Program-made: the position numbers and the translations under genes | Sequence record: OQ718158.1 | Strand: one strand, 5' to 3' | Length of the DNA: 64,000 nucleotides | Source: Escherichia phage vB_Ec-M-J | Part shown: one piece after another, positions 14,291-27,360 of the stretch | Layout: every line of letters begins with the position of its first letter | Position numbering within the stretch: the stretch's first letter is position 1 | The notes under the pieces: model-generated | Databases searched by the model: none | Seen by the model: the letters and a program-made list of their open reading frames with translations, nothing else | What the model was told of the DNA's origin: nothing

Positions 14291-14323
14291 ACTTACATCA
14301 ACCACTGATAAGGAAACATTAAA

Positions 14324-14599: not shown

Positions 14600-14602
14600 G
14601 TA

Positions 14603-14662
14603 TTGACAAAGTATCTTAGTACTGTATAATAGTTTACATCGAGAGGGGAAACGGTTCCCCTC
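14603..14662 (+). promoter_or_regulatory. early promoter + 5' stem-loop
   Basis: TTGACA-16-TATAAT; hairpin GAGGGGAAacggTTCCCCTC. Confidence 0.65.
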
Positions 14663-14685
14663 CTAACAAAGAGAGAGAAATAAAA

Positions 14686-14868: not shown

Positions 14869-14871
14869 GTA

Positions 14872-14931
14872 TTGACAAAGTATCTTAGTACTGTATAATA
14901 GTTTACATCAAGCGAGGGGAATGGTTCCCCT
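14872..14931 (+). promoter_or_regulatory. early promoter + 5' stem-loop
   Basis: TTGACA-16-TATAAT; hairpin GAGGGGAAtggTTCCCCTC. Confidence 0.65.
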
Positions 14932-14955
14932 CCTAACAAAGAGAGAGAAATAAAA

Positions 14956-15279
14956 ATGGCTATGATCCTTACCCAGAAAGTAGAACTGAAAATTGTAACC
15001 TCCTTTGACATTAACGTTAATCGGTGGACTGATTCACACGGCAATACTTACCACTCTTGCTACGTGTCTGCGTTAATTGGCGACCGCTGGGAAGACCTGG
15101 GACACGAAACCTTTACATACGGTTACGGTACACAAGGCGAATACACGGGCTTGGAGATCATTAAAGAAACCGTTATAGGTTTCAACCCGAAAGAAAAAGT
15201 TATTCACCGCATCGAGGAAGAGATCAACAAAGAAATAACAGTTCGATACAACGATGTAAAACGTAAGAAAGACATGTAA
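14956..15279 (+). CDS. hypothetical early protein; paralog of 8459..8782
   Basis: track ORF; conserved RWTDSHGNTYHSC block. Confidence 0.7.
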   Translation: MAMILTQKVELKIVTSFDINVNRWTDSHGNTYHSCYVSALIGDRWEDLGHETFTYGYGTQGEYTGLEIIKETVIGFNPKEKVIHRIEEEINKEITVRYNDVKRKKDM

Positions 15280-15301
15280 TAGAATCCATTTAAAGTACTA
15301 T

Positions 15302-15330
15302 TTGACATTGCCCAGATAGTACTTTATAAT
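15302..15330 (+). promoter_or_regulatory. sigma70-like promoter
   Basis: TTGACA-17-TATAAT. Confidence 0.55.
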
Positions 15331-15374
15331 AGACTCTAACTTGTAGTACTAACTCAACTAATAGGATGTATACC

Positions 15375-15770
15375 ATGATTACTAAATTCTACGCTACCCG
15401 TGAAGCTGCCCGTATTGTTGCACGCGAGGAAGGAGCAGCATTTAAAGACATGGGCAAAGATGCACCGAAAGGTCAACGCTGGGCCGTACAGTTCAAAGAA
15501 ATCTCTGATATTGTGAATTCACCTGAGCCAGTACTGACAGCAGCAGAACTAAAACGAGCGGATATGCTGGCGGCAATACTTGACGCACAAGATGAGTTTA
15601 TCGCTGATTCTGATATCAAAGTACAGGTAAACCACACCGCATGGACTCACGCGGATCACCTGGCAAACCTTAAGCGTCCAAGTGAACTGATTCGCAACCA
15701 GAAAGAGATCCGACACGACCGTAAGGGTAATCGTGTAACAGTATACAGTAAACGCCGCCAGGTTATCTAA
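15375..15770 (+). CDS. hypothetical early protein; paralog of 2861..3127
   Basis: start moved to ATG aligning with paralog (MITKFYATRE); track start 15366 is also possible. Confidence 0.6.
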   Translation: MITKFYATREAARIVAREEGAAFKDMGKDAPKGQRWAVQFKEISDIVNSPEPVLTAAELKRADMLAAILDAQDEFIADSDIKVQVNHTAWTHADHLANLKRPSELIRNQKEIRHDRKGNRVTVYSKRRQVI

Positions 15771-15800
15771 TAACTTGCAGTACTAACAACACGGCGGGAT

Positions 15801-15826
15801 CAGTTCCCGCCTTTTTTATAGGACAA
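15801..15826 (+). terminator. rho-independent terminator
   Basis: GGCGGGAtcagtTCCCGCC then TTTTTTAT. Confidence 0.7.
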
Positions 15827-15831
15827 ACAAC

Positions 15832-16086
15832 ATGATTAAGGTTCAACTATCAAACGATAATGTATTACGGGTACACTATAAAGCACCTCAGAGAATCATC
15901 ACAAAGGCCGTACAGCTTGCTAATGAGTTTATTAATGGTAACCTATTACCTAGGAAGTTAAGCAACGGGAAACTGCGTGTAATCGACGTGGACACTAACA
16001 ACAGGATAGTAATCGAGAACACAGGAAAGATAAACCTTTATGAGCATCAACAATACAATAAGAAAATAAAACTAATATCACGTTGA
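15832..16086 (+). CDS. hypothetical protein (84 aa)
   Basis: track ORF; RBS AGGA. Confidence 0.55.
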   Translation: MIKVQLSNDNVLRVHYKAPQRIITKAVQLANEFINGNLLPRKLSNGKLRVIDVDTNNRIVIENTGKINLYEHQQYNKKIKLISR

Positions 16087-16112
16087 CAGTACTCAATTGT
16101 TTTAGTACTATG
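16084..16112 (+). promoter_or_regulatory. promoter (leader duplicated at 16359)
   Basis: TTGACA-17-TACTAT; GTACTCAA.TGTTTTAGTACTAT conserved in both copies. Confidence 0.45.
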
Positions 16113-16139
16113 TACACATACCAACACGGGAGAAACAAA

Positions 16140-16358
16140 ATGAAATTATCTAAAATCGAAAAGAAAACTATTGATGAAGCAGTTAAGCACGGTTATACCT
16201 TTCGTAATGATTCACATTTTACCAATTTTCAACAAGGGTATCGTACTATTAAAAAACTAATTGACAAAGGTTTATTAGTTGAAGTCAATAACGGTAACGG
16301 TATCGAGTATCAACCAACACAGGACGCATTTTATTTTAAGAAATATAATATTATCTAA
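16140..16358 (+). CDS. hypothetical protein (72 aa)
   Basis: start moved to ATG after RBS GGGAGAAA; track start 16083 is the TTG of the -35. Confidence 0.6.
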   Translation: MKLSKIEKKTIDEAVKHGYTFRNDSHFTNFQQGYRTIKKLIDKGLLVEVNNGNGIEYQPTQDAFYFKKYNII

Positions 16359-16387
16359 TTGACAGTACTCAAATGTTTTAGTACTAT
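16359..16387 (+). promoter_or_regulatory. promoter, duplicate of 16084
   Basis: TTGACA-17-TACTAT. Confidence 0.45.
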
Positions 16388-16415
16388 ATGTACATACCAA
16401 CACGGGGGAAACAAA

Positions 16416-16658
16416 ATGATTACTTTAGAAAAACGTATCAAAGAAACTACATCGCTGGTGGAACTGTTAACAGTACTCAAATGTAAAACAACACCATTCA
16501 GCACGCCGGACTTTATTAATATGGTTGATGTTAATGGTCGCTATCGTATCACGGTCGAACAAGGAGCGGCGAAAGTATTCAGTACTAAAAACACTAAGGA
16601 AGTGATCCACGCCGTTAATGTTAAAAAAGTAGTTGCCATTGATAGTAAAGTACTGTAA
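16416..16658 (+). CDS. hypothetical protein (80 aa)
   Basis: start moved to ATG after RBS GGGGGAAA. Confidence 0.6.
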   Translation: MITLEKRIKETTSLVELLTVLKCKTTPFSTPDFINMVDVNGRYRITVEQGAAKVFSTKNTKEVIHAVNVKKVVAIDSKVL

Positions 16659-16689
16659 TATAGTTTCATTAACTCAAGGAGAACATGCA

Positions 16690-17274
16690 ATGCGTAATTA
16701 TACTAAATTCATCCGTACACTGTCAGAAATGGAAACCAACAAAGAGATCCTTTCAGCTTGTCGGTTAGCTGGACTGGAGATCATCGGTGCTGGTTCTTCC
16801 CGTATAGTATTCGCTTTAAATGATCGGTTAGTGATTAAGGTCGCGAATTGTGATGCGGGTGTAGAACAAAATGAAACTGAATGTAAGGTATGGAATTTTT
16901 TAGACTATGACCGCCCTCAGTTGAAACAGTACTTTGCAAAGGTGCATATGCATTTATGCGATCCTGATAATATGTTTATCGTTATGGATCGGTTGAGTAC
17001 TGCAAGTAAAGGCAGTGTGAAGCACGTTAACGCGTGCAATGAATTAAAGTACAATATTAAACGTAATGCAATTGAACGCCAGCACCGCTTTGCTGATGCA
17101 CTACAACACGTCGATGATACATTATCAACACTAACGATAAGAGATATCAGAAAACAGAATATCGGCCAGGATCGTAATGGCCTTATTAAAGTACTTGATT
17201 ACGGTTTAACCTGCAATATCTGGAATCAGTACTATAAAAAGCGTGATGTGGCAGCAAGTAAGGTAACACGATAA
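16690..17274 (+). CDS. putative protein kinase-like protein (Hanks-type motifs)
   Basis: IIGAGSSRIV (G-x-G loop), VIKVA (Lys), IRDIRKQN (catalytic loop), VLDYGL (DFG-like) in canonical order and spacing; RBS AAGGAG. Confidence 0.5.
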   Translation: MRNYTKFIRTLSEMETNKEILSACRLAGLEIIGAGSSRIVFALNDRLVIKVANCDAGVEQNETECKVWNFLDYDRPQLKQYFAKVHMHLCDPDNMFIVMDRLSTASKGSVKHVNACNELKYNIKRNAIERQHRFADALQHVDDTLSTLTIRDIRKQNIGQDRNGLIKVLDYGLTCNIWNQYYKKRDVAASKVTR

Positions 17275-17280
17275 AAAAGA

Positions 17281-17370
17281 TTAAAAAAGGGATTGACTCC
17301 GGTCAGTCCCTTTGCTATTATATATTCATTGAGAGATAACTCACTGACCCATAGGGTGCGGAAGTGTATC
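17281..17370 (+). promoter_or_regulatory. composite element: hairpin/promoter + conserved box
   Basis: AAAAAAGGGATTGACtccgGTCAGTCCC; TTGACT-17-TATTAT; TGACCCATAGGGTGCGGAAGTGTATCTAT. Confidence 0.55.
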
Positions 17371-17416
17371 TATTATATAAGTATTCAGTACTGAAAACTA
17401 TTTTAAAAAAAAGTAC

Positions 17417-17476
17417 TTGCATTGTACTTAGAATCAAGTATAATGTTTTATATCGAGAGGGGGAAATGGTTCTCCC
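17417..17476 (+). promoter_or_regulatory. early promoter + 5' stem-loop
   Basis: TTGCAT-16-TATAAT; hairpin GGGGGAAatggTTCTCCC. Confidence 0.6.
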
Positions 17477-17498
17477 TGGTATATTAAGGAATAAAATC

Positions 17499-17720
17499 AT
17501 GACTACAATGACTTGCATTTACGCTTCCAATCTTCTGAATGATGCGGCCTTTAATGTTGATTCAGAATATCAATGTTATCGGGATGAAAATAAAAAAGTT
17601 TTTGTAGTTGATAATAATGGTTTCCATATTGAATTACAATCCGGCTTCACTGGCGTTGATGGTAAATCAGTATGGGGCGTACAGGATGATAAAGGTACAT
17701 ATCATTTTAAACGTAATTAA
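17499..17720 (+). CDS. hypothetical early protein (73 aa)
   Basis: start moved to ATG after RBS AAGGAATAA. Confidence 0.6.
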   Translation: MTTMTCIYASNLLNDAAFNVDSEYQCYRDENKKVFVVDNNGFHIELQSGFTGVDGKSVWGVQDDKGTYHFKRN

Positions 17721-17723
17721 GTA

Positions 17724-17782
17724 TTGACAAAGTATCTTAGTACTGTATAATAGTTTACATCAAGGGGAGAATAGTTCTCCCC
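17724..17782 (+). promoter_or_regulatory. early promoter + 5' stem-loop
   Basis: TTGACA-16-TATAAT; hairpin GGGGAGAAtagTTCTCCCC. Confidence 0.65.
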
Positions 17783-17803
17783 GATACTAAAAGGAATAAA
17801 ATC

Positions 17804-18211
17804 ATGACTACTACTAATCAAGCTCGGTCCATCGCCAACGATAAAAATCATGCTGAAATGGTCGCTGGTTACATTGAAGCTATGCAATTCAGTACTGTAC
17901 ACAATGAGAACGGCGAATACCTGGAAGATTATGAATTATCAGAGCAAGCCCATCAAGCGGCAGTGATTGCATGTTCACGTTTCCTTGCTGTACATGGTGA
18001 AGATATGGAAACAGTACAAAAACACCATAATCCTGATTATACTTATAGTCATGCGGGTCATGATCTCTTTCTTACTCGCGAAGGTCACGGCACTGGTTTT
18101 TGGGATCGTGATATCGGTCACTATGATGATATATTCACTAAGTACTGCGAAGAAATCAACGTTTGCGATCCCTATGTAGGCGATGATAATCTAATCTATA
18201 TGGGCGAATAA
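17804..18211 (+). CDS. hypothetical early protein, His-rich (135 aa)
   Basis: track ORF; RBS AAGGAATAA. Confidence 0.65.
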   Translation: MTTTNQARSIANDKNHAEMVAGYIEAMQFSTVHNENGEYLEDYELSEQAHQAAVIACSRFLAVHGEDMETVQKHHNPDYTYSHAGHDLFLTREGHGTGFWDRDIGHYDDIFTKYCEEINVCDPYVGDDNLIYMGE

Positions 18212-18217
18212 AAGTAT

Positions 18218-18276
18218 TTGACAAAGTATATCAGTACTGTATAATAGTTTACATCAAGGGGAGAATAGTTCTCCCC
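18218..18276 (+). promoter_or_regulatory. early promoter + 5' stem-loop
   Basis: TTGACA-16-TATAAT; hairpin GGGGAGAAtagTTCTCCCC. Confidence 0.65.
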
Positions 18277-18298
18277 ACCAATAAAAGGAAACAAAATT

Positions 18299-18571
18299 AT
18301 GTCCAGCTACTCCGCTACTATGATCATTAAAGATATGAACGGTAATCCTACTTCTGCTGGTGGATCATTTGGAAACATTAATTTAGATGGTCGGTTATCC
18401 ATGCAATCAGCCATCGATGCAGCGAAAGAAGTTTTTAAGAATGAATGTACTGTAAGTAAGCTGGATTATATGGGATTCGCTATCGAAAAAACTAATCGTT
18501 TTGTGAACTACAAAAATCCACTGATGATCGATACTAACCTGAAAGCAAACGAAGTGGGGTACTTATTATGA
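18299..18571 (+). CDS. hypothetical early protein (90 aa)
   Basis: track ORF; RBS AAGGAAAC. Confidence 0.65.
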   Translation: MSSYSATMIIKDMNGNPTSAGGSFGNINLDGRLSMQSAIDAAKEVFKNECTVSKLDYMGFAIEKTNRFVNYKNPLMIDTNLKANEVGYLL

Positions 18572-18759
18572 CAGTAGAAGAAGTTAAAAAAGTACTGGCA
18601 GTACTACGCTATCATAATCATTGCAAGGTGAAGAATGATCCTGATTATCTCGATTCATCCCTGGAAGAGGATACACTACAAGCAATAAGCCATATGCAAA
18701 AAATGCTTAAGCGTATGACCGAAAAGAATAGGCCGGACTATATCGGAAATAAAATTTAA
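18568..18759 (+). CDS. hypothetical protein (63 aa)
   Basis: track ORF; ATGA overlap with upstream gene. Confidence 0.55.
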   Translation: MTVEEVKKVLAVLRYHNHCKVKNDPDYLDSSLEEDTLQAISHMQKMLKRMTEKNRPDYIGNKI

Positions 18760-18766
18760 AAAGTAC

Positions 18767-18826
18767 TTGCATTGTAGTTAGATTAACGTATAATGTTTTA
18801 TATCGAGAGGGGGAAATGGTTTCCCC
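18767..18826 (+). promoter_or_regulatory. early promoter + 5' stem-loop
   Basis: TTGCAT-16-TATAAT; hairpin GAGGGGGAAatggTTTCCCCTC. Confidence 0.6.
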
Positions 18827-18846
18827 TCAAGTCCAGGAGATACACC

Positions 18847-19110
18847 ATGAACACTATCGAAATCACTATCAATGCACACGTATACGACAACGTAGTACTG
18901 CAAACTACTATGACCGCTAATGATACCAGTACTTTGCGGAATACTGTTATTAGTGCCGTATGTGCTGCAATCGGTGATGTCGCCCTGGAAAATGCAGAAC
19001 ACATCAACAACGGTTTCACTATGTGCAAACGTGATAACGCAAAACATATCATCGTAGAAGGTTACGGCGGTGTAGAATTTAATGTTTATATGAAAAAAGT
19101 ACTTGCATAA
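18847..19110 (+). CDS. hypothetical early protein (87 aa)
   Basis: start moved to ATG after RBS CAGGAGA. Confidence 0.6.
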   Translation: MNTIEITINAHVYDNVVLQTTMTANDTSTLRNTVISAVCAAIGDVALENAEHINNGFTMCKRDNAKHIIVEGYGGVEFNVYMKKVLA

Positions 19111-19159
19111 TAACTAAAACAAAGTATAATGTTTTGCATAGGGGGAGATATCCTCCCCC
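19104..19159 (+). promoter_or_regulatory. early promoter + 5' stem-loop
   Basis: TTGCAT-15-TATAAT; hairpin GGGGGAGAtatcCTCCCCC. Confidence 0.6.
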
Positions 19160-19177
19160 ACTAAAAGGAGTAATAAA

Positions 19178-19402
19178 ATGGCTAACTTTGATGAACTGAT
19201 GCGGGAAGTAGCTAACCTGGCAGAAGAGAAGAAATCATTCGATTCTATCTATAACACCGCTCACCGTGATTCAGTACTGGCATGTAACCAGGATCAAAAA
19301 GATGAACTAATCGCCACCTATCATGAAGCATGGAAGTACTACCGACAATGGGAGAAAGAAGAAAGTGAGTCTACCATCGAAGGTATCAATAATCTAATCT
19401 AA
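19178..19402 (+). CDS. hypothetical early protein (74 aa)
   Basis: track ORF; RBS AAGGAG. Confidence 0.65.
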   Translation: MANFDELMREVANLAEEKKSFDSIYNTAHRDSVLACNQDQKDELIATYHEAWKYYRQWEKEESESTIEGINNLI

Positions 19403-19422
19403 AAGTTTTATTTCAGTACTAT

Positions 19423-19450
19423 TGACATAGCTTGATAGTACTGATGTAAT
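19423..19450 (+). promoter_or_regulatory. class-B early promoter
   Basis: TTGACA-16-TGTAAT. Confidence 0.5.
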
Positions 19451-19478
19451 AACTTTACTAACTACAAGGGGAAACATA

Positions 19479-19736
19479 ATGGATCAATTCACACAATATC
19501 GGGTAAATCCTCAATCTATGGCCTACGTAGAAGACCATAAAACGTTACCAGTACTGCAACCAGTTAAAGGCCGTATCTATCGTGGCCTTGCCTGGGATAC
19601 GGCCCAGGATGGATATAAAACCGTCGCCGTGGGGATGTATTGCGGGAATGGTGAATGGTTTGATCCTAACAATCCGATTGCACTTGACAGTACTGAAAAA
19701 ATGAAATGGGCCGACTACATCGAAGATATTTCATAA
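19479..19736 (+). CDS. hypothetical early protein (85 aa)
   Basis: track ORF; RBS AAGGGGAAA. Confidence 0.6.
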   Translation: MDQFTQYRVNPQSMAYVEDHKTLPVLQPVKGRIYRGLAWDTAQDGYKTVAVGMYCGNGEWFDPNNPIALDSTEKMKWADYIEDIS

Positions 19737-19743
19737 AAACTAT

Positions 19744-19806
19744 TTGACAGTACTAACCAGTAATGTATAATGTTTTACATAGAGCGGGGGAATAGTTCTC
19801 CCGCCA
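19744..19806 (+). promoter_or_regulatory. early promoter + 5' stem-loop
   Basis: TTGACA-16-TATAAT-GTTTTACAT; hairpin GAGCGGGGGAAtagTTCTCCCGCC. Confidence 0.6.
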
Positions 19807-19826
19807 ATAGTTTGGAGTTAAACATT

Positions 19827-20027
19827 ATGTCTATCGCTATCGCCCTGGTTGAAGTACTGAAAGAAGCTAAAGCCAACCTTATCGATGTACAGATTAAGGA
19901 ATTGCAAAACGGCTTAATCGGCTGTACTTGTACCGCTGGTGGAGCGGCAGACTATCGAGAACACGAATCACTCGAATCACTGGTTCGGTATCTTACCATG
20001 ATCGTTGATGATTGGAGAATCATCTAA
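19827..20027 (+). CDS. hypothetical early protein (66 aa)
   Basis: start moved to ATG after RBS GGAG. Confidence 0.6.
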   Translation: MSIAIALVEVLKEAKANLIDVQIKELQNGLIGCTCTAGGAADYREHESLESLVRYLTMIVDDWRII

Positions 20028-20036
20028 CAAAAAAGA

Positions 20037-20126
20037 ATAAAAAAGGGATTGACTCCGGTCAGTCCCTTTGCTATTATATACGCATAGACAAAAACTAGCC
20101 CACAGGGTGCATAAGTGTATCCAAAA
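20037..20126 (+). promoter_or_regulatory. composite element: hairpin/promoter + conserved box
   Basis: AAAAAAGGGATTGACtccgGTCAGTCCC; TTGACT-17-TATTAT; TAGCCCACAGGGTGCATAAGTGTATCC. Confidence 0.55.
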
Positions 20127-20189
20127 TATATAGTTAATAACGGTGAGTAACTATCTGCTGGTGGAGTGAAAACTATTAATAAAAAAGTA

Positions 20190-20218
20190 TTGACAAAGTA
20201 TATCAGTACTGCAATAAT
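20190..20218 (+). promoter_or_regulatory. sigma70-like promoter
   Basis: TTGACA-16-CAATAAT. Confidence 0.45.
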
Positions 20219-20271
20219 GTATCTCGTAGGGCGGCAATGGTGCGACGGCCCACAAAGTTAGGAGCTTCAAA

Positions 20272-20604
20272 ATGACTACTTCAATCGCTATCGTTAAAGC
20301 TTTCATCCGTACTAATGTTTCCTCTGTATTCATCGACGGCCTCGACCGTAACGTAGAATACTCAATCATTATCGCACAAACGGCAAACGGTTCTCGGTAC
20401 ATCCTGAATGATAGTGAAGCAAATCACTACTACTTCACTAAAGCCACTGGCTTTAAACGCATCGATGCTGATGTAGTATACGCTAAGATGAATAAGCTGG
20501 TAGATAAGATTAACGCTAAAGGTACTATAGATTTACAGTACTGGACCGAAACCGATCCAGAATATGGATCTCACCGCTACCTGAATCCAGGTATTAAAAT
20601 GTAA
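20272..20604 (+). CDS. hypothetical protein (110 aa)
   Basis: track ORF; RBS TTAGGAG. Confidence 0.65.
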   Translation: MTTSIAIVKAFIRTNVSSVFIDGLDRNVEYSIIIAQTANGSRYILNDSEANHYYFTKATGFKRIDADVVYAKMNKLVDKINAKGTIDLQYWTETDPEYGSHRYLNPGIKM

Positions 20605-20611
20605 AAAGTAC

Positions 20612-20672
20612 TTGCATAGTACTTAGATTCATGTATAATGTTTTACATAGAGAGGGGGAAATGGTTCTCCCT
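20612..20672 (+). promoter_or_regulatory. early promoter + 5' stem-loop
   Basis: TTGCAT-16-TATAAT-GTTTTACAT; hairpin GAGGGGGAAatggTTCTCCCTC. Confidence 0.6.
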
Positions 20673-20693
20673 CCTAAATTAAGGAGTTTTATC

Positions 20694-21095
20694 ATGACCT
20701 TCTCAATCACTTCCTTCGCTGACGTTTTAGTACTGGCTCGGACTTTTGGTAAAGATGCACTGGAGTACGCTGTAAGTAATGGCACTATCCAACCGGAACA
20801 GTGCCGCATCATTGGAAACTGCAAACGTTGGGCGGTATCCAATACTATTGCACTGGAAAACTTCAACGATGGCAACAATGAATATTCTGTTGATGCAGTA
20901 TTCGAAGCCGTAGACCTGGGCGGTATCTATAACACTAACCTGAATGATGTGCGTATCGTTCGCACGGGGTTCGGTGCTTATGATGTATCTATCCGTGAAG
21001 CTATGGACAATGGATACATTAGCAAGGACTTACTTGCTCACATCATGCAGCTATGGACGGAACGTAACGAAGCACGCACTATCTTAGGGCTGTAA
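20694..21095 (+). CDS. hypothetical protein (133 aa)
   Basis: start moved to ATG after RBS AAGGAG. Confidence 0.65.
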   Translation: MTFSITSFADVLVLARTFGKDALEYAVSNGTIQPEQCRIIGNCKRWAVSNTIALENFNDGNNEYSVDAVFEAVDLGGIYNTNLNDVRIVRTGFGAYDVSIREAMDNGYISKDLLAHIMQLWTERNEARTILGL

Positions 21096-21120
21096 GCGTT
21101 ACACATCACTAAACATCATA

Positions 21121-21140
21121 GGCCGCTCTCTAGCGGCCTT
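21121..21140 (+). terminator. GC hairpin (weak terminator candidate)
   Basis: GGCCGCTctctAGCGGCC, no clean T-run. Confidence 0.3.
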
Positions 21141-21163
21141 AACTATATCAGGAGGGCATACAT

Positions 21164-21373
21164 ATGTTCTATACAGTATATAGCGTTATAGGCACTATTG
21201 CAGGCGTACATGATAACGTCGATAGTGCTATGCGTACAGTACTGCAACAGGTTCCACTTAAGCCTAAGACCATTAAGCAGATGACAGCACGACTAACCAG
21301 GGCGACGGCTGGCGTGGAAGTATGGCAGGACTATGGGGATACACAGATAATCGTAAGCGTAACGAAGGATTAA
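21164..21373 (+). CDS. hypothetical protein (69 aa); last gene before composition shift
   Basis: track ORF; strong RBS AGGAGG. Confidence 0.6.
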   Translation: MFYTVYSVIGTIAGVHDNVDSAMRTVLQQVPLKPKTIKQMTARLTRATAGVEVWQDYGDTQIIVSVTKD

Positions 21374-21565
21374 TGCGTAAAAGGATTTAGTACTGAATCA
21401 TAAAAAAGTCAAGGTATTTTTAAACTTCAGCGTTAAAAAAATGCATAGGTAATCCCTTGACTTTTATGAATAAAAAGGGATTGGACTATGGCAAAATGCG
21501 TAGGGGGCTAAAGGGCGGGTAACCTTTAGCGACTTCGATAAAGGGGTATTACTAATAAAATGTTA

Positions 21566-21594
21566 TTGACTTTTTATATGAATTGTATATTATA
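21566..21594 (+). promoter_or_regulatory. promoter at head of F1 array
   Basis: TTGACT-17-ATTATA. Confidence 0.5.
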
Positions 21595-21623
21595 TGATTG
21601 ATATTATTTTTAATGGAGTCCCT

Positions 21624-21821
21624 ATGCGTATTTTAACTCAAGAAGAGCACAACGACACACTCATATCCAACATGGCATATATCCTACATATGTCACATAT
21701 CCGTGGTATTGCATATAAGCGTGAATTGGTTATGAAACTTTTCATAGGAACTAACTATCAAGAAAAGTATATCGAACTATACTTACAAGAATTACGAAGG
21801 GACATAAAAGGAAGACGATGA
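21624..21821 (+). CDS. F1 paralog (small GTNYQ-motif protein)
   Basis: start moved to ATG after RBS GGAG; C-terminal FIGTNYQEKYIELYL. Confidence 0.55.
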   Translation: MRILTQEEHNDTLISNMAYILHMSHIRGIAYKRELVMKLFIGTNYQEKYIELYLQELRRDIKGRR

Positions 21822-22018
21822 AAATGCGTATTTTAAATAAAGAAGATTATCAAGAACTGTTACGTAAAAACATGGTAAAGATTTATAACACAGACACAAA
21901 CTTAGAACGAATTGAGTTATACCTTTTGATTACATTGGGAACAAGCTATCAGGGAAGATGGGTGATTCAATATATTGATGCATTGAAAAATGAAATATTG
22001 TCCACGAGGAAACAATGA
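21818..22018 (+). CDS. F1 paralog
   Basis: ATGA overlap; LGTSYQGRWVIQYI. Confidence 0.55.
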   Translation: MKMRILNKEDYQELLRKNMVKIYNTDTNLERIELYLLITLGTSYQGRWVIQYIDALKNEILSTRKQ

Positions 22019-22224
22019 AAACTATAACACGAACCCAATCATTCGGTCTTATCTTGAAATACATGGACTTAATGTTTGATATCAGCAAAGACCTTTCTAA
22101 AACTGAAATCCAAGTTGCAAGAGCAGAGATCCGCATGTTGGCTGTACTGAACACAAACCATCAGGAAGAGTATGTTGACGATTGGATTCATTTTTTAATA
22201 GAAGATATTAAGAGTAAACTATGA
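22015..22224 (+). CDS. F1 paralog
   Basis: ATGA overlap; LNTNHQEEYVDDWI. Confidence 0.55.
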   Translation: MKTITRTQSFGLILKYMDLMFDISKDLSKTEIQVARAEIRMLAVLNTNHQEEYVDDWIHFLIEDIKSKL

Positions 22225-22436
22225 TTTTTTTAACACCAGAAGAATATAAGATACGTTTTGTTTCTGTCCAGAATAAAATCTTACTGATATATGCTTCTTT
22301 AAATGTAGACCTTAACTTATCAAGGGCAATGGAGAAGGATTTACTCATGGGTGCATTTTTGGATACAGACTTTCAGGAGTATTATGTAGGGGAATACTTA
22401 ATTGCACTCAAGAATTATATTAAGAGTAAACTATGA
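22221..22436 (+). CDS. F1 paralog
   Basis: ATGA overlap; FLDTDFQEYYVGEY. Confidence 0.55.
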   Translation: MIFLTPEEYKIRFVSVQNKILLIYASLNVDLNLSRAMEKDLLMGAFLDTDFQEYYVGEYLIALKNYIKSKL

Positions 22437-22648
22437 ATATCATTGCAAACTCAAATCAATATACCGAACGCGTCGCTGCCAGACAACTTGAAATTCTCAT
22501 AGTATATGAAGAGACTGATGATTTGAACTTAGCATTAGTATTGGAAAATGATATACTATTGGGTGCATTCCTCGGCACAGACTATCAGGAGCATTTCTTG
22601 AATGAGTATATAATTGCACTCCAGAAATACATTAAGAGCAAACTATGA
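22433..22648 (+). CDS. F1 paralog
   Basis: ATGA overlap; LGTDYQEHFLNEYI. Confidence 0.55.
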   Translation: MNIIANSNQYTERVAARQLEILIVYEETDDLNLALVLENDILLGAFLGTDYQEHFLNEYIIALQKYIKSKL

Positions 22649-22863
22649 AACATTTAAGTAATTCCGAGAAGAATAAAATTATCATTGCTGCAATAAACAA
22701 ATATTTTACACTTCCTCACACAGAAGGTTTATGTGTAAGAGAACACAGGATAAACACCACCGATATACGCATGATGGCTGTACTGGGGACTAACTTTCAG
22801 GAAGAGTATGTTGTTGCACACATAGTTGCCCTCACTGATCTAATAAGGGACAAATGTAAATGA
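22645..22863 (+). CDS. F1 paralog
   Basis: ATGA overlap; LGTNFQEEYVVAHI. Confidence 0.55.
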   Translation: MKHLSNSEKNKIIIAAINKYFTLPHTEGLCVREHRINTTDIRMMAVLGTNFQEEYVVAHIVALTDLIRDKCK

Positions 22864-23117
22864 AACACTTAACACTAGATGAATATGAAACTATAGTCCG
22901 TAAACTAACCCCTATAGCAAGGATAGTCTACGATGACCCCAGCCTTACATGGAACCAAATGCGAGCTAAAGTTAATGAGCTATGGTTGCTGTACTTTATG
23001 GGAACGCAATATCAAGATAAGTTTTGCACAGAATATGTCGAACAATTAATGAATGTTATACAGGATAAACTAGATGATTATTGGCTCACAAAACATGAAG
23101 ACTTTATCAGGAGTTGA
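22860..23117 (+). CDS. F1 paralog
   Basis: ATGA overlap; MGTQYQDKFCTEYV. Confidence 0.55.
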   Translation: MKHLTLDEYETIVRKLTPIARIVYDDPSLTWNQMRAKVNELWLLYFMGTQYQDKFCTEYVEQLMNVIQDKLDDYWLTKHEDFIRS

Positions 23118-23346
23118 GTATCAAACTGCCCTATTCTCTTTAATCCATACCCTTAGAAAAAACAATGCCTTACATGGTGCACCTGAAGTGGATGTTATCA
23201 ACGGTGAACTTTATCTTATGAAATTCATTGGAACAAACTATCAAGATCTGTTCATTCAACGATACCTATCAGCATTAAGAAACCAAATCCAATATAAAAC
23301 CATCAAGGCCAAAAAAGAATGGAATAAACAATGCGACACAGACTAA
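23095..23346 (+). CDS. F1 paralog
   Basis: in-frame ATG chosen (track 23074); FIGTNYQDLFIQRYL. Confidence 0.5.
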   Translation: MKTLSGVEYQTALFSLIHTLRKNNALHGAPEVDVINGELYLMKFIGTNYQDLFIQRYLSALRNQIQYKTIKAKKEWNKQCDTD

Positions 23347-23582
23347 ATCACAAAATGTATTGTAAACTATTACAGACACTGGCACAGAAACACTATGACA
23401 CGGTATCTGAAATATTACCCTATGATATCATGCGTTTACTTCACTGTGAGGCCGAGATGCTTGTACTGATGACAGGCACTGATAAAAAAGCAATTGCCAA
23501 ATCAATAGATATGTTCATCGAAGCACAATGTCAACACATTAGAACCGAGATATGGAGACGAGAGAATGATAACACTAAATGA
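23331..23582 (+). CDS. F1 paralog (divergent, MTGTD)
   Basis: track ORF; LMTGTDKKAIAKSI. Confidence 0.45.
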   Translation: MRHRLNHKMYCKLLQTLAQKHYDTVSEILPYDIMRLLHCEAEMLVLMTGTDKKAIAKSIDMFIEAQCQHIRTEIWRRENDNTK

Positions 23583-23781
23583 GTTTCAGTATCATTGGAG
23601 GTTACAAGCTATAAGAAGGAAAGTTGTTAGTATTTCTTTAGACAAGTCTATTGCACAAGAGGACAAATGTGTTATAATAGCTGAAATGAAGTTGGGTGTA
23701 TTCGTAGGAACAAACTATCAAAACATCTACACTGACGTATTGTTAAGTGCCTTACGTAACAAGGTGATATCAAAAGAATGA
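23566..23781 (+). CDS. F1 paralog
   Basis: track ORF; FVGTNYQNIYTDVLL. Confidence 0.55.
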   Translation: MITLNEFQYHWRLQAIRRKVVSISLDKSIAQEDKCVIIAEMKLGVFVGTNYQNIYTDVLLSALRNKVISKE

Positions 23782-23996
23782 GAAAATTAATAGGTTACGA
23801 ATATGTTAAGCTTCTGAAAACATGTGCCAACAGAAGAGTAAAGATTCAATCTGATAAGAGCATCCCTGCCAACCTAAAACATGCAATGGTAGCTGAACTC
23901 TATGCAGGGGCACTCATAGGGACAAACTATCAACAAATGTATATAGACATGTGGGTTGATGCATTAGTCAAGGAGATCCAAAGTAAATGCAAATGA
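23778..23996 (+). CDS. F1 paralog
   Basis: ATGA overlap; LIGTNYQQMYIDMWV. Confidence 0.55.
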   Translation: MRKLIGYEYVKLLKTCANRRVKIQSDKSIPANLKHAMVAELYAGALIGTNYQQMYIDMWVDALVKEIQSKCK

Positions 23997-24205
23997 TTAA
24001 TTTAAGTAAAGATGAATATTATGTTCGTCTTGCAAAAACTTATCCAGCACGTAACGCCGTTTATAATAGTAACATTATTGAACGCTCAAAGAAGTTGATT
24101 GTAGTAAATGAGATTAAGATGCTTTCAGTCTTAGGAACAAACTATCAAGAGAATGCTGTACTGTTGTTAATTGATGCCCTCAAGAGAGAGATACAAAGTA
24201 AATGA
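23987..24205 (+). CDS. F1 paralog
   Basis: track ORF; LGTNYQENAVLLLI. Confidence 0.55.
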   Translation: MQMINLSKDEYYVRLAKTYPARNAVYNSNIIERSKKLIVVNEIKMLSVLGTNYQENAVLLLIDALKREIQSK

Positions 24206-24441
24206 TTAATTTATCTTTCCATGAATATCAAAAACGTTTAAATGCATCAAGGGATATAAGGATTCAAATCTTCAATAACAAAAAATTGAAACCTGACACC
24301 AGAAGAATCAAAATAATAGAAGCAGAGTTATGCAACTTCCTGGGGACGAACCATCAGGAAGGTAAGATAAAAAACTATCTTAGAGAACTAATGATTTGTA
24401 TCGAAAATAAATGTGATGCTTTGGAGAATAAAAATGATTAA
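24202..24441 (+). CDS. F1 paralog
   Basis: ATGA overlap; LGTNHQEGKIKNYL. Confidence 0.55.
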   Translation: MINLSFHEYQKRLNASRDIRIQIFNNKKLKPDTRRIKIIEAELCNFLGTNHQEGKIKNYLRELMICIENKCDALENKND

Positions 24442-24691
24442 TTTAAGTAAAGATGAATATACCGAGCGTATGACAAAAATTACGCACAAACGTAATACAA
24501 TCTATCACAACCCAGAAATTCAACACAGTAAGAAAATGATTATGATGCGTGAGTTAAAGATGGGTGTATTCTTGGGAACAAACTATCAAGAGCCAGAAGT
24601 AAATCGATTAATTGATGAGTTACTATTGGAAATCAAAGGTAAGCTGTACTTTCATCAAATGACCCAACCACTGAGGTGTACTGATCGATGA
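24434..24691 (+). CDS. F1 paralog
   Basis: start moved to ATG after RBS GGAG (track 24413); LGTNYQEPEVNRLI. Confidence 0.55.
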   Translation: MINLSKDEYTERMTKITHKRNTIYHNPEIQHSKKMIMMRELKMGVFLGTNYQEPEVNRLIDELLLEIKGKLYFHQMTQPLRCTDR

Positions 24692-24939
24692 ATGCGATGA
24701 ATATTGTGAATAACATCAGATTAGCAGAAAGATTTGATAGAATTGGGGAAGCACTGAGAAGATACGATAAAGAATATGGTCATTTGAGCTTTTCTATAGA
24801 AAAGAGATATGAACTTGAAGCAGAGTTTAAAATGCAGAGTCTCTTAGGCACACAGTATCAAAACCAATATATTCAAACTTGGATTGATTGTTTAATCCAG
24901 ACAATTTACGTAAGAAACATTAAATGCAAAATGAAATGA
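24688..24939 (+). CDS. F1 paralog
   Basis: ATGA overlap; LGTQYQNQYIQTWI. Confidence 0.55.
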   Translation: MNAMNIVNNIRLAERFDRIGEALRRYDKEYGHLSFSIEKRYELEAEFKMQSLLGTQYQNQYIQTWIDCLIQTIYVRNIKCKMK

Positions 24940-25184
24940 TATACTTAACCTATAATGAATACGTCGAGAGATTAGTTCGTGCCAAGAGATATACCAATAA
25001 ACGTCCAATTGACCTAAACCAAACCCCAGCAGAAAGGAGTGCAGAAGTATTATTCCAATCACTACCATATCTTCTGGGAACTGATAGACAAGAGGAATAT
25101 GTTGCACGTATGATTAGATATCTTAAAATCACTATTAAGGAAAAAGTAAATGCAAATGCAAATGAAATACTTAACAGACGATGA
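24924..25184 (+). CDS. F1 paralog
   Basis: track ORF; LGTDRQEEYVARMI. Confidence 0.5.
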   Translation: MQNEMIYLTYNEYVERLVRAKRYTNKRPIDLNQTPAERSAEVLFQSLPYLLGTDRQEEYVARMIRYLKITIKEKVNANANEILNRR

Positions 25185-25407
25185 GTTAAAAGAACGATTA
25201 ATTAAATCCAGAAAACTTACAAATCAACTTCCAAACGACACAAACAAGTCACATGCCGAAAGGAGTGCAGAAGTTTTATACATTCAACTCCTGTACTTTC
25301 TTGGAACTGACAGACAAGAGTATTACATTGAAAGTATGCTTCGATATCTTAAATTCTCTATAAAGGAAAAGGTACATGCTCAAGAATTTAAAAATCCTAA
25401 CAGTTAA
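25150..25407 (+). CDS. F1 paralog
   Basis: track ORF; LGTDRQEYYIESML; close paralog of 24924 gene. Confidence 0.5.
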   Translation: MQMQMKYLTDDELKERLIKSRKLTNQLPNDTNKSHAERSAEVLYIQLLYFLGTDRQEYYIESMLRYLKFSIKEKVHAQEFKNPNS

Positions 25408-25618
25408 TGAATATCATAAGATTGTAATGAAAACTAATAGTGCAATTTCTAAAAAATCAAACCCAAAGTACATACTGGAACACACATTTGAAGAACGTCA
25501 ATTAGCTTTAGTTGAAGCAAAACTTCTTGCACTATTAGGAACAAACTATCAGGAAGAATACATCAGAAAACTAATATACCTTTTAACTAAACACATCAGG
25601 AAAAGAAAAAAAGCATGA
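25376..25618 (+). CDS. F1 paralog
   Basis: track ORF; LGTNYQEEYIRKLI. Confidence 0.5.
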   Translation: MLKNLKILTVNEYHKIVMKTNSAISKKSNPKYILEHTFEERQLALVEAKLLALLGTNYQEEYIRKLIYLLTKHIRKRKKA

Positions 25619-25845
25619 AGCACTTGACAGATGATGAACATGGGCTTATAGTAATGGATGTAATCAACATCGAATACAAAAAGTTGATACGCTACCGTTG
25701 TTATGAAGATAAGCAACTCGTTCTAGCAGAACAGAAGTTGTTTCGACTCTTAAACACAAACTTCCAAGCACAATACGAAGAATCGTATATGTACCTTTTG
25801 GCGAGGAAAGCAAAAAGAGATTATGAAAATTTTAAGCCACAGTGA
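25615..25845 (+). CDS. F1 paralog
   Basis: ATGA overlap; LNTNFQAQYEESYM. Confidence 0.5.
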   Translation: MKHLTDDEHGLIVMDVINIEYKKLIRYRCYEDKQLVLAEQKLFRLLNTNFQAQYEESYMYLLARKAKRDYENFKPQ

Positions 25846-26038
25846 ACAAACAGAATTGTTAATCTTTAATACAAGTAAATTCTTAAACATAACATTGTCT
25901 GATATAGATGATGATGAAAAAGAGTTACTTAGAGCAGATTTAAGAGTTCTTTTATATATTGGAACTAACTTCCAAGAGCAATTCGTTGAGGACTACATCG
26001 ATGAACTTAAAGAATCTGTACTGAGAACATGCAAATGA
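25823..26038 (+). CDS. F1 paralog
   Basis: track ORF; IGTNFQEQFVEDYI. Confidence 0.5.
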   Translation: MKILSHSEQTELLIFNTSKFLNITLSDIDDDEKELLRADLRVLLYIGTNFQEQFVEDYIDELKESVLRTCK

Positions 26039-26262
26039 AAATCCTTTCACCAAGTGAATACCACGAACTATTAAGTAGTTTAATTCTAAAATTGTATATA
26101 GCAAAGACCACAGATTTACCTGATGAAGAAAAAAATATTCTAATGAGTGAAATCTATGTTAATTCTACCCTAGGGACTAACTATCAAGAATGCAATATTA
26201 ATGATTACATCAATGAACTAAAAAGGTTTATCCAATGCAAATGCGAATCATTACCGAAGTAG
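26029..26262 (+). CDS. F1 paralog
   Basis: track ORF; LGTNYQECNINDYI. Confidence 0.5.
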   Translation: MQMKILSPSEYHELLSSLILKLYIAKTTDLPDEEKNILMSEIYVNSTLGTNYQECNINDYINELKRFIQCKCESLPK

Positions 26263-26477
26263 AATACCTAACAATCATAAATGGACTGTTTTCGAAGTTA
26301 TTTGCCATTAACACATCAAAACTTCCAGATACTGATAAAATTATTAAGTTAAATGAAATCTACGTTCAAGCTACTCTAGGAACAAACTATCAAGAAGCCA
26401 ATGTGTATAATTACATTAATACACTCAAAAGGGTAATACAATTAAAATGCACAGACAGCACACACACAAACCCCTAG
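26235..26477 (+). CDS. F1 paralog
   Basis: track ORF; LGTNYQEANVYNYI; close paralog of 26029 gene. Confidence 0.5.
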   Translation: MQMRIITEVEYLTIINGLFSKLFAINTSKLPDTDKIIKLNEIYVQATLGTNYQEANVYNYINTLKRVIQLKCTDSTHTNP

Positions 26478-26677
26478 GAACAGCAGAATACATTGAACTA
26501 ATGGCTGCAAACTTCTCATCCTTTAAGAAACTGATGCAAGAATCAAATAATGATTTAGAATATCATATCAAAAGTTCAGATTTAAGATTGCTACTCACTC
26601 TAGGAACAGACAGTCAGTACAAATTCGTACAGGAGCATATTAGAGCACTTTTAAATGGCATCAGGGATAAACTATGA
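26447..26677 (+). CDS. F1 paralog
   Basis: track ORF; LGTDSQYKFVQEHI. Confidence 0.5.
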   Translation: MHRQHTHKPLGTAEYIELMAANFSSFKKLMQESNNDLEYHIKSSDLRLLLTLGTDSQYKFVQEHIRALLNGIRDKL

Positions 26678-26889
26678 AGGAAATATCAAATCAAGAGTAC
26701 TTGGCACTGTTCAGAAAAAATAGTCAAGAATTTCTGAATATTGATACAAGGACTGATATAAGTGAACTTCAGAAAAATCTTTTGCGTTCAGAGATGATAG
26801 TACTGACACTCTTAGGAACACAGCATCAAGAGAGAACTGTTAATTCACACATAGGTATTCTTATACAGATAGTACAGGAAAAGATATGA
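26674..26889 (+). CDS. F1 paralog
   Basis: ATGA overlap; LGTQHQERTVNSHI. Confidence 0.5.
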   Translation: MKEISNQEYLALFRKNSQEFLNIDTRTDISELQKNLLRSEMIVLTLLGTQHQERTVNSHIGILIQIVQEKI

Positions 26890-27107
26890 GAATCATAACA
26901 CAAAAAGATATTTTTAAGTACGCAAGGGTTCATGCATCTGAAATGAATGCTATATTATCAAAAAGTTACAATGACCCTTATACACAAGATGTACTGTATC
27001 AGGAATTATGGTTGAATATACTTATAGGTACTAACTACCAAGATGAGTGCGTTCAGAGGTATTTGACAGCTTTACGTGATGCTACAGCTAATGGAGTACG
27101 TGTTTAA
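26886..27107 (+). CDS. F1 paralog
   Basis: ATGA overlap; IGTNYQDECVQRYL. Confidence 0.5.
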   Translation: MRIITQKDIFKYARVHASEMNAILSKSYNDPYTQDVLYQELWLNILIGTNYQDECVQRYLTALRDATANGVRV

Positions 27108-27108
27108 T

Positions 27109-27360
27109 ATGAAAGTACTGAGTGAATTAGAAATGCATAATAGATTATACAAGTACTACCATTTACTTAAACCTATACAGAGGATTAAGTGTCCCTTTGA
27201 AGTGAAACAGGTTTTGATTTATGAGCATAAGTTCTTTGTATCATTAGGTACTAATCATCAAGAGTACTTTTTGAAGTTGTACTTGATTACATTAATAGAT
27301 TTAATTCACTATAAAACCACACAATCTAAACAAGCTAATAAAGAGAAATATGAAAACTAA
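27109..27360 (+). CDS. F1 paralog
   Basis: ATG 1 nt after upstream stop (track 27076); LGTNHQEYFLKLYL. Confidence 0.5.
   Translation: MKVLSELEMHNRLYKYYHLLKPIQRIKCPFEVKQVLIYEHKFFVSLGTNHQEYFLKLYLITLIDLIHYKTTQSKQANKEKYEN

Follow-up and report, generated by a model that had tools for sequence, protein, structure and literature searches.

Genes and features at the locus

We analyzed a 64,000-nt stretch of DNA from Escherichia phage vB_Ec-M-J (sequence record OQ718158.1; hereafter, the window), in which GC content and codon usage change abruptly near position 21,550. This DNA represents the left terminus of an Asteriusvirus jumbo coliphage genome, and the step is the inner edge of an approximately 21.5-kb direct terminal repeat (DTR) that abuts the unique part of the genome, an assignment that we consider secure. 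All genes of the window lie on the plus strand and form two differently organized blocks. The left DTR copy (positions 1–21,525, plus strand) carries about 55 small, spaced and mostly promoter-fronted genes, preceded by a non-coding, repeat-rich outer part (1–1,702, GC 38.5%). The last gene of this block (21,164–21,373, plus strand) encodes a 69-aa protein of phrog_17833, to which no function is assigned; Pfam and PHROGs searches with the products of the last DTR genes likewise gave no function, the match for 21,164–21,370 being DUF7217. Among the other DTR products, that of 16,633–17,271 had a sub-threshold match to kinases in the same databases.

A non-coding gap (21,374–21,623), already recognized in an initial sequence-only reading of this DNA, separates this gene from a tandem array of about 25 overlapping paralogs of 58–93 aa (phrog_4148, function unassigned; 21,624–27,360, plus strand), which starts with the first gene after the DTR. 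The array is followed by further tightly packed families of genes for proteins of 100–210 aa, also without assigned function (27,350–56,374, plus strand). Neighbouring genes lie a median of 82.5 nt apart within the DTR, compared with −4 nt right of the boundary.

The compositional step

The GC content is 38.6% at 1,700–21,400, 31.8% in the gap (21,400–21,600) and 32.4% at 21,600–56,000. The best single change-point for the entire 64 kb is 21,550 (maximum likelihood, log-likelihood gain 108), and the difference between adjacent 5-kb segments peaks at the same position (0.061, compared with 0.037 at most in the rest of the window). In per-gene comparisons of the 55 genes to the left of the boundary with the 110 genes to the right, GC content differs at the first (GC1, 0.476 vs. 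0.408), second (GC2, 0.343 vs. 0.270) and third (GC3, 0.376 vs. 0.308) codon positions (Mann-Whitney p < 1e-8 for each). Thus, the abrupt boundary perceived in the sequence-only reading is borne out by quantitative profiles, with a significant fall of about 7 points at each codon position and the largest step in the window.

The codon adaptation index (CAI), calculated with the ribosomal protein and elongation factor genes of Escherichia coli as the reference, follows the same trend (0.419 on the left vs. 0.304 on the right, p = 1e-13); that reading had proposed this comparison. Its individual codon examples fared unevenly. The fractions of CTG (0.26 vs. 0.08), CGT (0.42 vs. 0.28), CCG (0.28 vs. 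0.09) and GCG (0.19 vs. 0.08) among the codons for the respective amino acids are indeed higher on the left, and those of AGA (0.10 vs. 0.36) and ATA (0.11 vs. 0.28) are higher on the right, but TTA barely differs (0.36 vs. 0.40) and AAA is actually more common on the left (0.74 vs. 0.65).

The boundary is the inner edge of the direct terminal repeat

A search with 3 kb of sequence from across the boundary returned 41 phage records, which all represent Escherichia, Salmonella or Klebsiella jumbo phages of the PBECO4/121Q (Asteriusvirus) type, with Ecwhy_1, EC.P1 and fEgEco12 closest at about 97% identity (97.4% at the top). The record of fEgEco12 is linear, 374,733 bp long, and its positions 1–20,993 are 100% identical to positions 353,741–374,733. 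The DTR of this phage has been found with PhageTerm and its ends have been confirmed by restriction digests (PMC13070987). The first 21,525 bp of the window are collinear with the fEgEco12 DTR from end to end at 94–97.5% identity, base 1 aligning with base 1 and the last base of fEgEco12 (...GGGCGGGTAACCT) aligning with position 21,525. Hence the window starts at the physical end of the genome, positions 1–21,525 are the DTR, and the non-coding gap is the junction between the DTR and unique DNA.

The length mapped in this way exactly matches the 21,525 bp given for the DTR of vB_Ec-M-J (PMC13070987), and the records of fEgEco12, E9.1, BF17 and CRJP21 all end with ...GGGCGGGTAACCT, that is, at window position 21,525. 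The compositional change-point (21,550) is only 25 bp away. The sequence-only reading correctly discerned a real boundary between two differently organized gene blocks but missed its physical identity as the inner end of the DTR. The record of BAU.Micro_ELP-22 stops 128 nt before the shared terminus, at ...AGTACTGAT, which is probably a less precise end assignment. For another phage, UE-S1, a repeat of 8.3 kb has been reported, which the authors of the fEgEco12 study doubt (PMC13070987).

The same arrangement is found in more distant relatives. In Klebsiella phage fENko-Kae01, the annotated DTR (1–19,736) consists of spaced small genes and ends in an intergenic gap, beyond which overlapping genes for paralogs of about 180 aa follow. 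Another laboratory delimited the DTR of Pectobacterium phage CBB (1–22,456) from read depth (PMC5259590), and the layout is again that of the window, with spaced DTR genes, an end in an intergenic gap and packed paralogs beyond. The GC content drops from 37.3% in the DTR to 33.8% beyond it in fENko-Kae01, and from 37.8% to 34.7% in CBB; the change-points (19,570 and 23,070) are close to the respective DTR ends (19,736 and 22,456), and the change-point of fEgEco12 (21,000) practically coincides with its DTR end (20,993). The other DTR boundary of fEgEco12 also is a step, from 33.3% to 38.5% GC. Immediately upstream of that boundary, at 348.8–353.4 kb of fEgEco12, another AT-rich stretch (33.5% GC) comprises about 18 closely spaced genes of 46–69 aa (one of 219 aa), so that in a concatemer the GC-rich repeat would have small-gene arrays on both sides.

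The junction element

The gap between the two blocks contains a compact set of sequence elements, several of which are conserved. Next to the last DTR gene there is a AGTACTGAA box (21,389–21,397), which contains a hexamer palindrome that is highly over-represented in the genome (see below). It is followed by the inverted repeat that the sequence-only reading had pointed out, TCATAAAAAAGTCAAGG ... CCTTGACTTTTATGA (21,398–21,469), with core arms at 21,404–21,418 and 21,451–21,465 that are complementary at 14 of 15 positions and lie 32 nt apart. This repeat forms the main hairpin in the predicted RNA fold of the gap, which is more stable than the folds of shuffled sequences (z = −3.4), and its AAGTCAAG...TTGACTTTT portion is present also in fENko-Kae01. 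The box AAAATGCATAGGTAATCCCTT (21,438–21,458) is identical in CBB. A second conserved box, GATTGGACTATG (21,479–21,490), contains the motif G(G/C)ACTATG; from the start of this motif to the DTR end, the distance is exactly 43 nt in each of the three lineages.

The terminus itself (21,525/21,526; ...GGGCGGGTAACCT followed by TTAGC) is straddled by a small inverted repeat, GCTAAAGG-N8-CCTTTAGC (21,507–21,530; arms 21,507–21,514 and 21,523–21,530). The cut context (C/G)CT|TAGC is conserved, and the homologous CT|TAGC is the annotated DTR end in both fENko-Kae01 (19,736) and CBB (22,456). Furthermore, the last two DTR genes of the window are homologous to the last two genes of the fENko-Kae01 DTR; the homologue of the very last one, ENKO_050, occupies the same last position (36% identity, E = 2e-11). 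The junction element is presumably the site where the ends of the terminal repeat arise during packaging. A search of the gap against Rfam identified no family, the sole match being snoR74 at 22.7 bits (gathering threshold 44, E = 0.91), and a scan of IMG/VR for TTGACTTTT-N(10-17)-GATTGGACTATG yielded one contig only, too few for a comparative test.

On the unique side of the terminus, a promoter-like sequence, TTGACT-16-TATTAT (21,566–21,593, plus strand; 10 of 12 consensus positions), heads the first array, in agreement with the new promoter predicted for the gap by the sequence-only reading. It is conserved in fEgEco12, and fENko-Kae01 has TTGACA-17-TATACT at the equivalent place. Given that this site is located just outside the DTR, it is present once per genome. 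The first array gene starts at 21,624 and is preceded by GGAG at 21,615–21,618. A second candidate sigma-70 promoter, at the TTGACT within the inverted repeat (21,457), was rejected because there is no −10 element at a distance of 16–18 nt.

The terminal repeat is a distinct genome compartment

The DTR resembles a compartment that faces the host, and it differs from the rest of the genome in its regulatory architecture. It contains 103 sigma-70-like sites compared with 65.4 ± 8.5 in shuffled sequences, whereas the next 20 kb contain 110 compared with 113 ± 11, which upholds the description of the left block as one with E. coli-like promoters. About 40 of the promoters in the DTR are of the consensus sigma-70 type, and there are 11 perfect TTGACA-N16/17-TATAAT sites and 15 TTGCAA-16-TATAAT sites, all on the plus strand. 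An upstream promoter matching the consensus at 10 or more of 12 positions was identified for 27 of the 55 DTR genes (49%) but only for 17 of the 110 genes to the right of the boundary (15%). Terminator-like hairpins show a similar distribution, with 24 in the DTR vs. 12.9 expected and 5 on the right side vs. 6.1 expected.

A cassette found at four positions (10,353–10,380, 14,011–14,038, 17,286–17,313 and 20,042–20,069) consists of a TG-extended TTGACT-17-TATTAT promoter with the −35 element embedded in a 12-bp hairpin, AAAGGGATTGACTCCGGTCAGTCCCTTT; placed between DTR genes, it combines a terminator-like structure with a promoter. The non-coding outer part (1–1,702) opens with the hairpin GGCAGAggaagTCTGCC and contains about 13 (C)AGTACT(G) boxes and several repeat families, including 8-nt periodic degenerate repeats (CTAGAYGG-like) at 757–916. 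The genomes of fENko-Kae01 and CBB begin with TATC..., and in fEgEco12 TATCC is located 10 nt upstream of the called left end.

For a region-wise comparison, the whole fEgEco12 genome was assembled from its record. The GC content is 35.5% in the unique part and 38.5% in the DTR, which is exceeded only by the tail-fibre block (39.5%). The GC3 values are 0.363 for the DTR and 0.281 for the unique genes taken together; relative to the core, the DTR is higher by 8.2 points at GC3, 3.4 at GC1 and 2.9 at GC2. Among individual codons, CTG (0.25 in the DTR vs. 0.08 in unique genes), ATC (0.45 vs. 0.24), GGC (0.27 vs. 0.08), CCG (0.21 vs. 0.07) and CGG (0.18 vs. 0.00) are enriched; the shift in CTG, ATC and GGC also is seen in fENko-Kae01 and CBB.

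Tetranucleotide signatures, which the sequence-only reading had proposed to compare across the boundary, do show a strong discontinuity, although the block that deviates is not the one that it had in mind. Core segments of fEgEco12 correlate with each other at r = 0.85–0.90 and the arrays correlate with the core at 0.64–0.76, preserving most of the signature of the genome, whereas the DTR does so at only 0.27; thus, the DTR and not the arrays is the odd compartment. Across the three genera, the DTRs correlate with each other at r = 0.79–0.84, and the unique parts do so at 0.72–0.88. The DTR character is maintained across genera, which argues against recent acquisition.

The paralog arrays and the two components of the step

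The arrays resemble operons in which paralogous genes overlap. The phrog_4148 family comprises 28 members of 58–93 aa, about 25 of which are contiguous up to 27.4 kb. In fEgEco12, the family is confined to 21–27 kb, and it is absent from the first 45–48 kb of fENko-Kae01 and CBB. Searches of the array paralogs against Pfam and PHROGs gave no function. The arrays (24–50 kb) are the GC minimum of fEgEco12, the lowest 21-kb window having 31.8% GC, and they have the lowest CAI of the genome (0.29 compared with 0.40 in the DTR). Their deficit is concentrated at the first two codon positions (GC1/GC2 0.408/0.268 vs. 0.446/0.315 in unique genes). The encoded proteins contain less Ala (3.6% vs. 7.5%) and more Phe, Tyr and Leu, and the synonymous codons AGA, ATA, ACA and GGA, which are rare in the host, are favoured, so that the codon shift of the arrays opposes host preference (rho = −0.42). 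The AT-richness of the arrays might be explained by protein composition together with weak codon selection in fast-evolving paralogs.

Thus, two independent deviations from the genome average add up to the step, that of the DTR (about +3 GC points, mainly GC3) and that of the arrays (about −3.5 GC points, mainly GC1 and GC2). The arrays account for roughly half of the step in Asteriusvirus. In fENko-Kae01 and CBB, where the small-paralog array is absent, a step of about 3–3.5 GC points remains.

Within Asteriusvirus, the two compartments also differ in divergence. The window differs from phage SP27 by 3.5% in the DTR and by 10% in the arrays, and from fEgEco12 by about 3% in both (compared over window positions 1–43,000). 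The DTR is either far more conserved than the arrays or exchanged between Asteriusvirus species.

Recombination signals and oligonucleotide signature

The recombination hotspot sequence Chi (GCTGGTGG) occurs 12 times in the window compared with 0.48 ± 0.69 expected, and 11 of these sites are in the DTR, nine in the plus and two in the minus orientation. The sites are at 588 (minus), 600 (plus), 7,402 (minus), 7,464 (plus), 11,739, 13,199, 14,099, 16,454, 18,356, 19,935 and 20,157 (all plus), and the single site beyond the DTR is at 59,909 (minus). The DTRs of fENko-Kae01 (12 plus, 2 minus) and CBB (7 plus, 2 minus) show the same bias, and in fEgEco12 the DTR, which is 6% of the genome, contains 10 of the 24 plus-oriented sites. 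In coding sequence, four Chi sites are observed compared with 0.39 expected when synonymous codons are shuffled. An inverted Chi pair, CCACCAGC-N4-GCTGGTGG, is located about 0.5–0.6 kb from the left terminus in the window (588/600), fEgEco12 and fENko-Kae01. The plus orientation is the one that is active for RecBCD entering from the right end (PMC12315714).

Several short oligonucleotides separate the DTR from unique DNA. GATC is avoided in unique DNA (observed/expected 0.43–0.45; 1.4–1.6 per kb) but not in the DTR (0.92; 3.8–4.1 per kb). Only in the DTR is CCWGG enriched (observed/expected 1.69 vs. 0.47–0.66), and only there are CTAG (0.42 vs. 0.8–0.9) and CTTGG/CCAAG (0.30 vs. about 1) depleted. 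An excess of CCWGG together with a deficit of CTAG and CTTGG/CCAAG is the pattern classically tied to very-short-patch (VSP) repair in E. coli.

The palindrome AGTACT, often within CAGTACTG, is vastly over-represented. AGTACTG occurs 231 times on both strands of the window compared with 7.0 ± 3.0 in shuffled sequences, and AGTACT reaches a density of 6.6 per kb in the DTR, 0.9 per kb in the small-paralog array (21.5–27.3 kb) and 3.0 per kb beyond; examples are at 109, 391, 534, 560, 683, 1,075, 1,147, 1,237, 1,547, 1,600, 1,613 and 21,389. There are 1,115 copies in fEgEco12 compared with about 128 expected from base composition, and fENko-Kae01 and CBB follow the same pattern. Many copies occupy promoter spacers, abutting the −10 element (TTGACA-N9-AGTACTG-TATAAT), and copies within genes are found in all three frames; a literature search on AGTACT in jumbo phages returned nothing usable. 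Conversely, GCGC is missing from the 64-kb window, from fEgEco12 (0 vs. about 190 expected) and from the segments of fENko-Kae01 (45 kb) and CBB (48 kb) that were compared. GGATCC likewise does not occur in fEgEco12, nor does CCWGG in the 45-kb segment of fENko-Kae01. These absences look like restriction-site avoidance.

Origin of the compositional difference

Taken as a whole, our explanation is that two unlike genome compartments abut at the DTR edge and that the GC enrichment of the DTR comes from a regional, GC-biased pressure; we estimate its probability at about 0.78. The codon shift of the DTR relative to the core follows the distinction between G/C-ending and A/T-ending codons (rho = 0.69, t = 6.5) rather than E. 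coli preference (rho = 0.11). The 1.7 kb of non-coding DNA in the DTR are as GC-rich as its remainder. Together with the excess at all three codon positions, these observations suggest a regional pressure that is not codon-specific. The Chi cluster and the CCWGG, CTAG and CTTGG frequencies peculiar to the DTR point the same way, and polarised substitutions yield an equilibrium GC content of 0.346 for the DTR compared with 0.278 for the arrays, in line with the present-day difference. The most likely source would be recombination between repeat copies, driven by Chi, RecBCD and RecA, followed by host mismatch repair, and such a process could maintain the enrichment of the DTR. Immediate-early expression by the unmodified host machinery would be the main alternative or a co-cause. 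We infer that recombination and repair rank slightly above expression as an explanation; the two are not mutually exclusive.

Several considerations weigh against this explanation. The two equilibrium GC values are only about 2 standard errors apart, which makes the substitution test weak, and SP27 is a poor outgroup within the DTR (3.5% divergence compared with 3.0% within the ingroup). Two identical repeat copies provide no mismatches, so biased repair would depend on replication errors or on mixed infections. Codon choice, with more CTG and less CTA and TTG, could by itself produce the VSP-like oligonucleotide pattern. The window includes one genome end only, so that for this genome the second copy is supported by homology and the published length, and the literature searched gave no expression, packaging or injection data for this phage group. 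Finally, the arrays, too, appear to be driven by sigma-70-like promoters (at 21,566, 28,267, 32,031 and others), so a purely temporal account of the contrast, or one based on the RNA polymerase, is not evident.

The alternative that fares best holds that the DTR is a pre-early segment that enters the cell first, as in phage T5, and that its composition is selected for the host RNA polymerase and the host tRNA pool before phage tRNAs and factors are made. Initially, we interpreted the codon shift in these terms, as an adaptation to host-preferred codons, given the correlation of the difference between the DTR and the arrays with the usage of highly expressed E. coli genes. This correlation stems, however, from the avoidance of good codons by the arrays, and the shift of the DTR itself is simply toward G/C-ending codons; translational selection was accordingly demoted to a rival. 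This scenario retains a good deal in its favour. Consensus sigma-70 promoters precede about half of the DTR genes, the CAI is higher in the DTR than in the arrays, and codon usage in the DTR correlates better with that of E. coli (r = 0.81 for ordinary and 0.53 for highly expressed genes) than usage in the core (0.68 and 0.37) or the arrays (0.65 and 0.23).

Six unannotated tRNA genes were detected with ARAGORN at 290.9–295.1 kb of fEgEco12 (Ser-TGA, Ser-GCT, Met/Ile-CAT, Asn-GTT and two Thr-TGT), and there are none in the 64-kb window. Several of these tRNAs decode codons that are rare in the DTR but preferred in later genes, including those of the arrays, such as ACA (0.17–0.18 vs. 0.36–0.52), as selection for the host tRNA pool would predict. 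T5 shows a shift in the same direction, the genes of its left terminal repeat (LTR) having GC3 of 0.381 and CAI of 0.402 compared with 0.310 and 0.347 in the adjacent early genes, and the tetranucleotide signature of the T5 LTR correlates with those of the DTRs discussed here (r = 0.33–0.49).

Other features fit selection for early expression less well. Compared with the core, the DTR loses the host-optimal codons CGT, GGT, GCT and GTT and gains CGG, which is rare in the host; the structural genes reach an equal CAI without a rise in GC3; and the high GC content extends to the non-coding part. A tblastn search with 15 T5 LTR proteins, including A1 and A2, found no match in the window at E ≤ 0.01, and a two-step entry of the T5 type is an analogy for this phage group; a literature search for Asteriusvirus transcriptomes produced nothing usable. 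The different expression constraints that the sequence-only reading had suggested are thus compatible with the evidence and plausible, but the shift of the DTR relative to the core tracks G/C-ending codons and not host preference, and we regard expression timing as a possible but less likely explanation of the composition.

According to another view, only the arrays are unusual, their weakly constrained, duplicating paralogs having drifted toward AT next to ordinary phage DNA. The arrays are indeed the extreme of the genome in both GC content and CAI, their divergence from SP27 is three times that of the DTR, and their codons shift against host preference. Nevertheless, the DTR itself is an outlier with respect to the remaining 300 kb in GC3, tetranucleotide signature, and Chi, GATC and CCWGG densities, and the array GC3 (0.295 vs. 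0.281 for the genome) is unlike the product of mutational drift. Given that the array deficit lies mainly at GC1 and GC2, which reflect amino-acid composition, and that the DTR deviates on its own, this view could cover at most about half of the step; it is contradicted as the sole explanation and is improbable.

The least probable possibility, which we deem very unlikely, is that the arrays or the left block were acquired horizontally and that the step is an un-ameliorated seam: although the tetranucleotide discontinuity is strong, the small-paralog family is found only in Asteriusvirus and not beside the DTRs of fENko-Kae01 or CBB, and array copy number varies among close relatives (matches of 3,208 bp for a 3,001-bp query), most of the genome signature persists in the arrays, three genera share the DTR with its last two genes, the junction element and the GC step, an anciently acquired segment would be ameliorated by now in the absence of active maintenance, a step remains without the array, and there is no integrase, transposase or tRNA at the seam in the annotations of relatives and the tRNA scan of the window. 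Accordingly, the different evolutionary origin of the arrays entertained in the sequence-only reading is not supported. In the synteny comparison that it had proposed, array copy number varied among close relatives, the phrog_4148 array was absent next to the DTRs of fENko-Kae01 and CBB, and the DTR was syntenic in all relatives examined, across three genera. With respect to the DTR as a putative island, its composition is atypical, but it is present in all these relatives and no mobility genes are annotated.

Returning to the regional GC-biased pressure, a broader hypothesis can be formulated. The DTR might be a 'host-interface' compartment that evolves by rules of its own, enters and acts first like the first-step-transfer DNA of T5, is armoured and made recombinogenic by oriented Chi sites, owes its GC-richer and more host-like oligonucleotides to host recombination and VSP or mismatch repair working preferentially on the repeat, and ends where G(G/C)ACTATG-N35-|TAGC, as a site-specific signal, dictates. 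In this complete form the hypothesis is speculative and rather doubtful; if it is true, the DTR would be a phage case of recombination-linked GC-biased conversion within a defined 21-kb segment.

Implications

The identification of the step with the DTR edge explains an otherwise puzzling discontinuity. It also provides cheap markers for the physical genome ends, namely the GC and GC3 step, the G(G/C)ACTATG-N35-|TAGC motif, and the Chi and AGTACT densities, which should be useful for the many genomes of Asteriusvirus and Rak2-like phages that have been deposited circularly permuted or without the repeat. In promoter architecture, codon regime and host-recombination signals, the approximately 50 unassigned genes of the repeat are a compartment of their own, and they are obvious candidates for immediate-early host takeover in a group of phages that is used for therapy. 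Should the GC enrichment be driven by recombination or repair, the repeat would offer a compact, naturally occurring case in which to study GC-biased conversion in a virus.

The DTR itself is already published. The accounts of Rak2-like DTRs that we examined give only length and gene count and are silent on its distinct sequence character, namely the GC and codon step, the oligonucleotide signature of the compartment, the junction element and the Chi cluster; the paper on phAPEC6 does not deal with repeats, promoters or GC content.

Comparison with known systems

The closest counterparts are the other Rak2-like DTRs, those of fEgEco12 (20,993 bp), vB_Ec-M-J (21,525 bp), Sharanji (20,668 bp), fENko-Kae01 (19,736 bp) and CBB (22,456 bp). 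All have the structure seen in the window, without any structural difference: the outer part is non-coding, about 50 small genes lie on the plus strand, and the repeat ends between two genes, with packed paralogs next to it.

With regard to the recombination signals, phage P1 and lambdoid phages such as LLS resemble the present case in that Chi sites are far more numerous than expected, are located in or near the terminal redundancy and are biased in orientation (PMC12315714). Unlike these phages, the phage studied here is a virulent jumbo myovirus with recombination proteins of its own (RecA-like, SbcCD-like and others).

By analogy with the DTR, the LTR of phage T5 carries small genes of the host-takeover type behind host-type promoters, with GC3 and CAI above those of the adjacent early genes. 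Two-step entry is established in T5 and would be a conjecture for the DTR, at whose inner edge a structured, conserved junction element is seen. There are also structural differences: the T5 genes are on both strands whereas all DTR genes are on the plus strand; the inner edge of the T5 repeat carries a 1-kb injection stop signal, but the large non-coding block of the DTR lies on the outer (left) side; and the T5 LTR shows no AGTACT enrichment (no copies) and T5 has abundant GCGC (89 in 50 kb), which is absent here.

Finally, Bacillus phage SPO1 has a terminal repeat of about 13 kb that is packed with many small early genes for host takeover, each with a strong promoter for the host sigma factor. 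By virtue of their location in the terminal repeat, these takeover genes are present twice per genome, in a phage that differs from the present one in both host and lineage.

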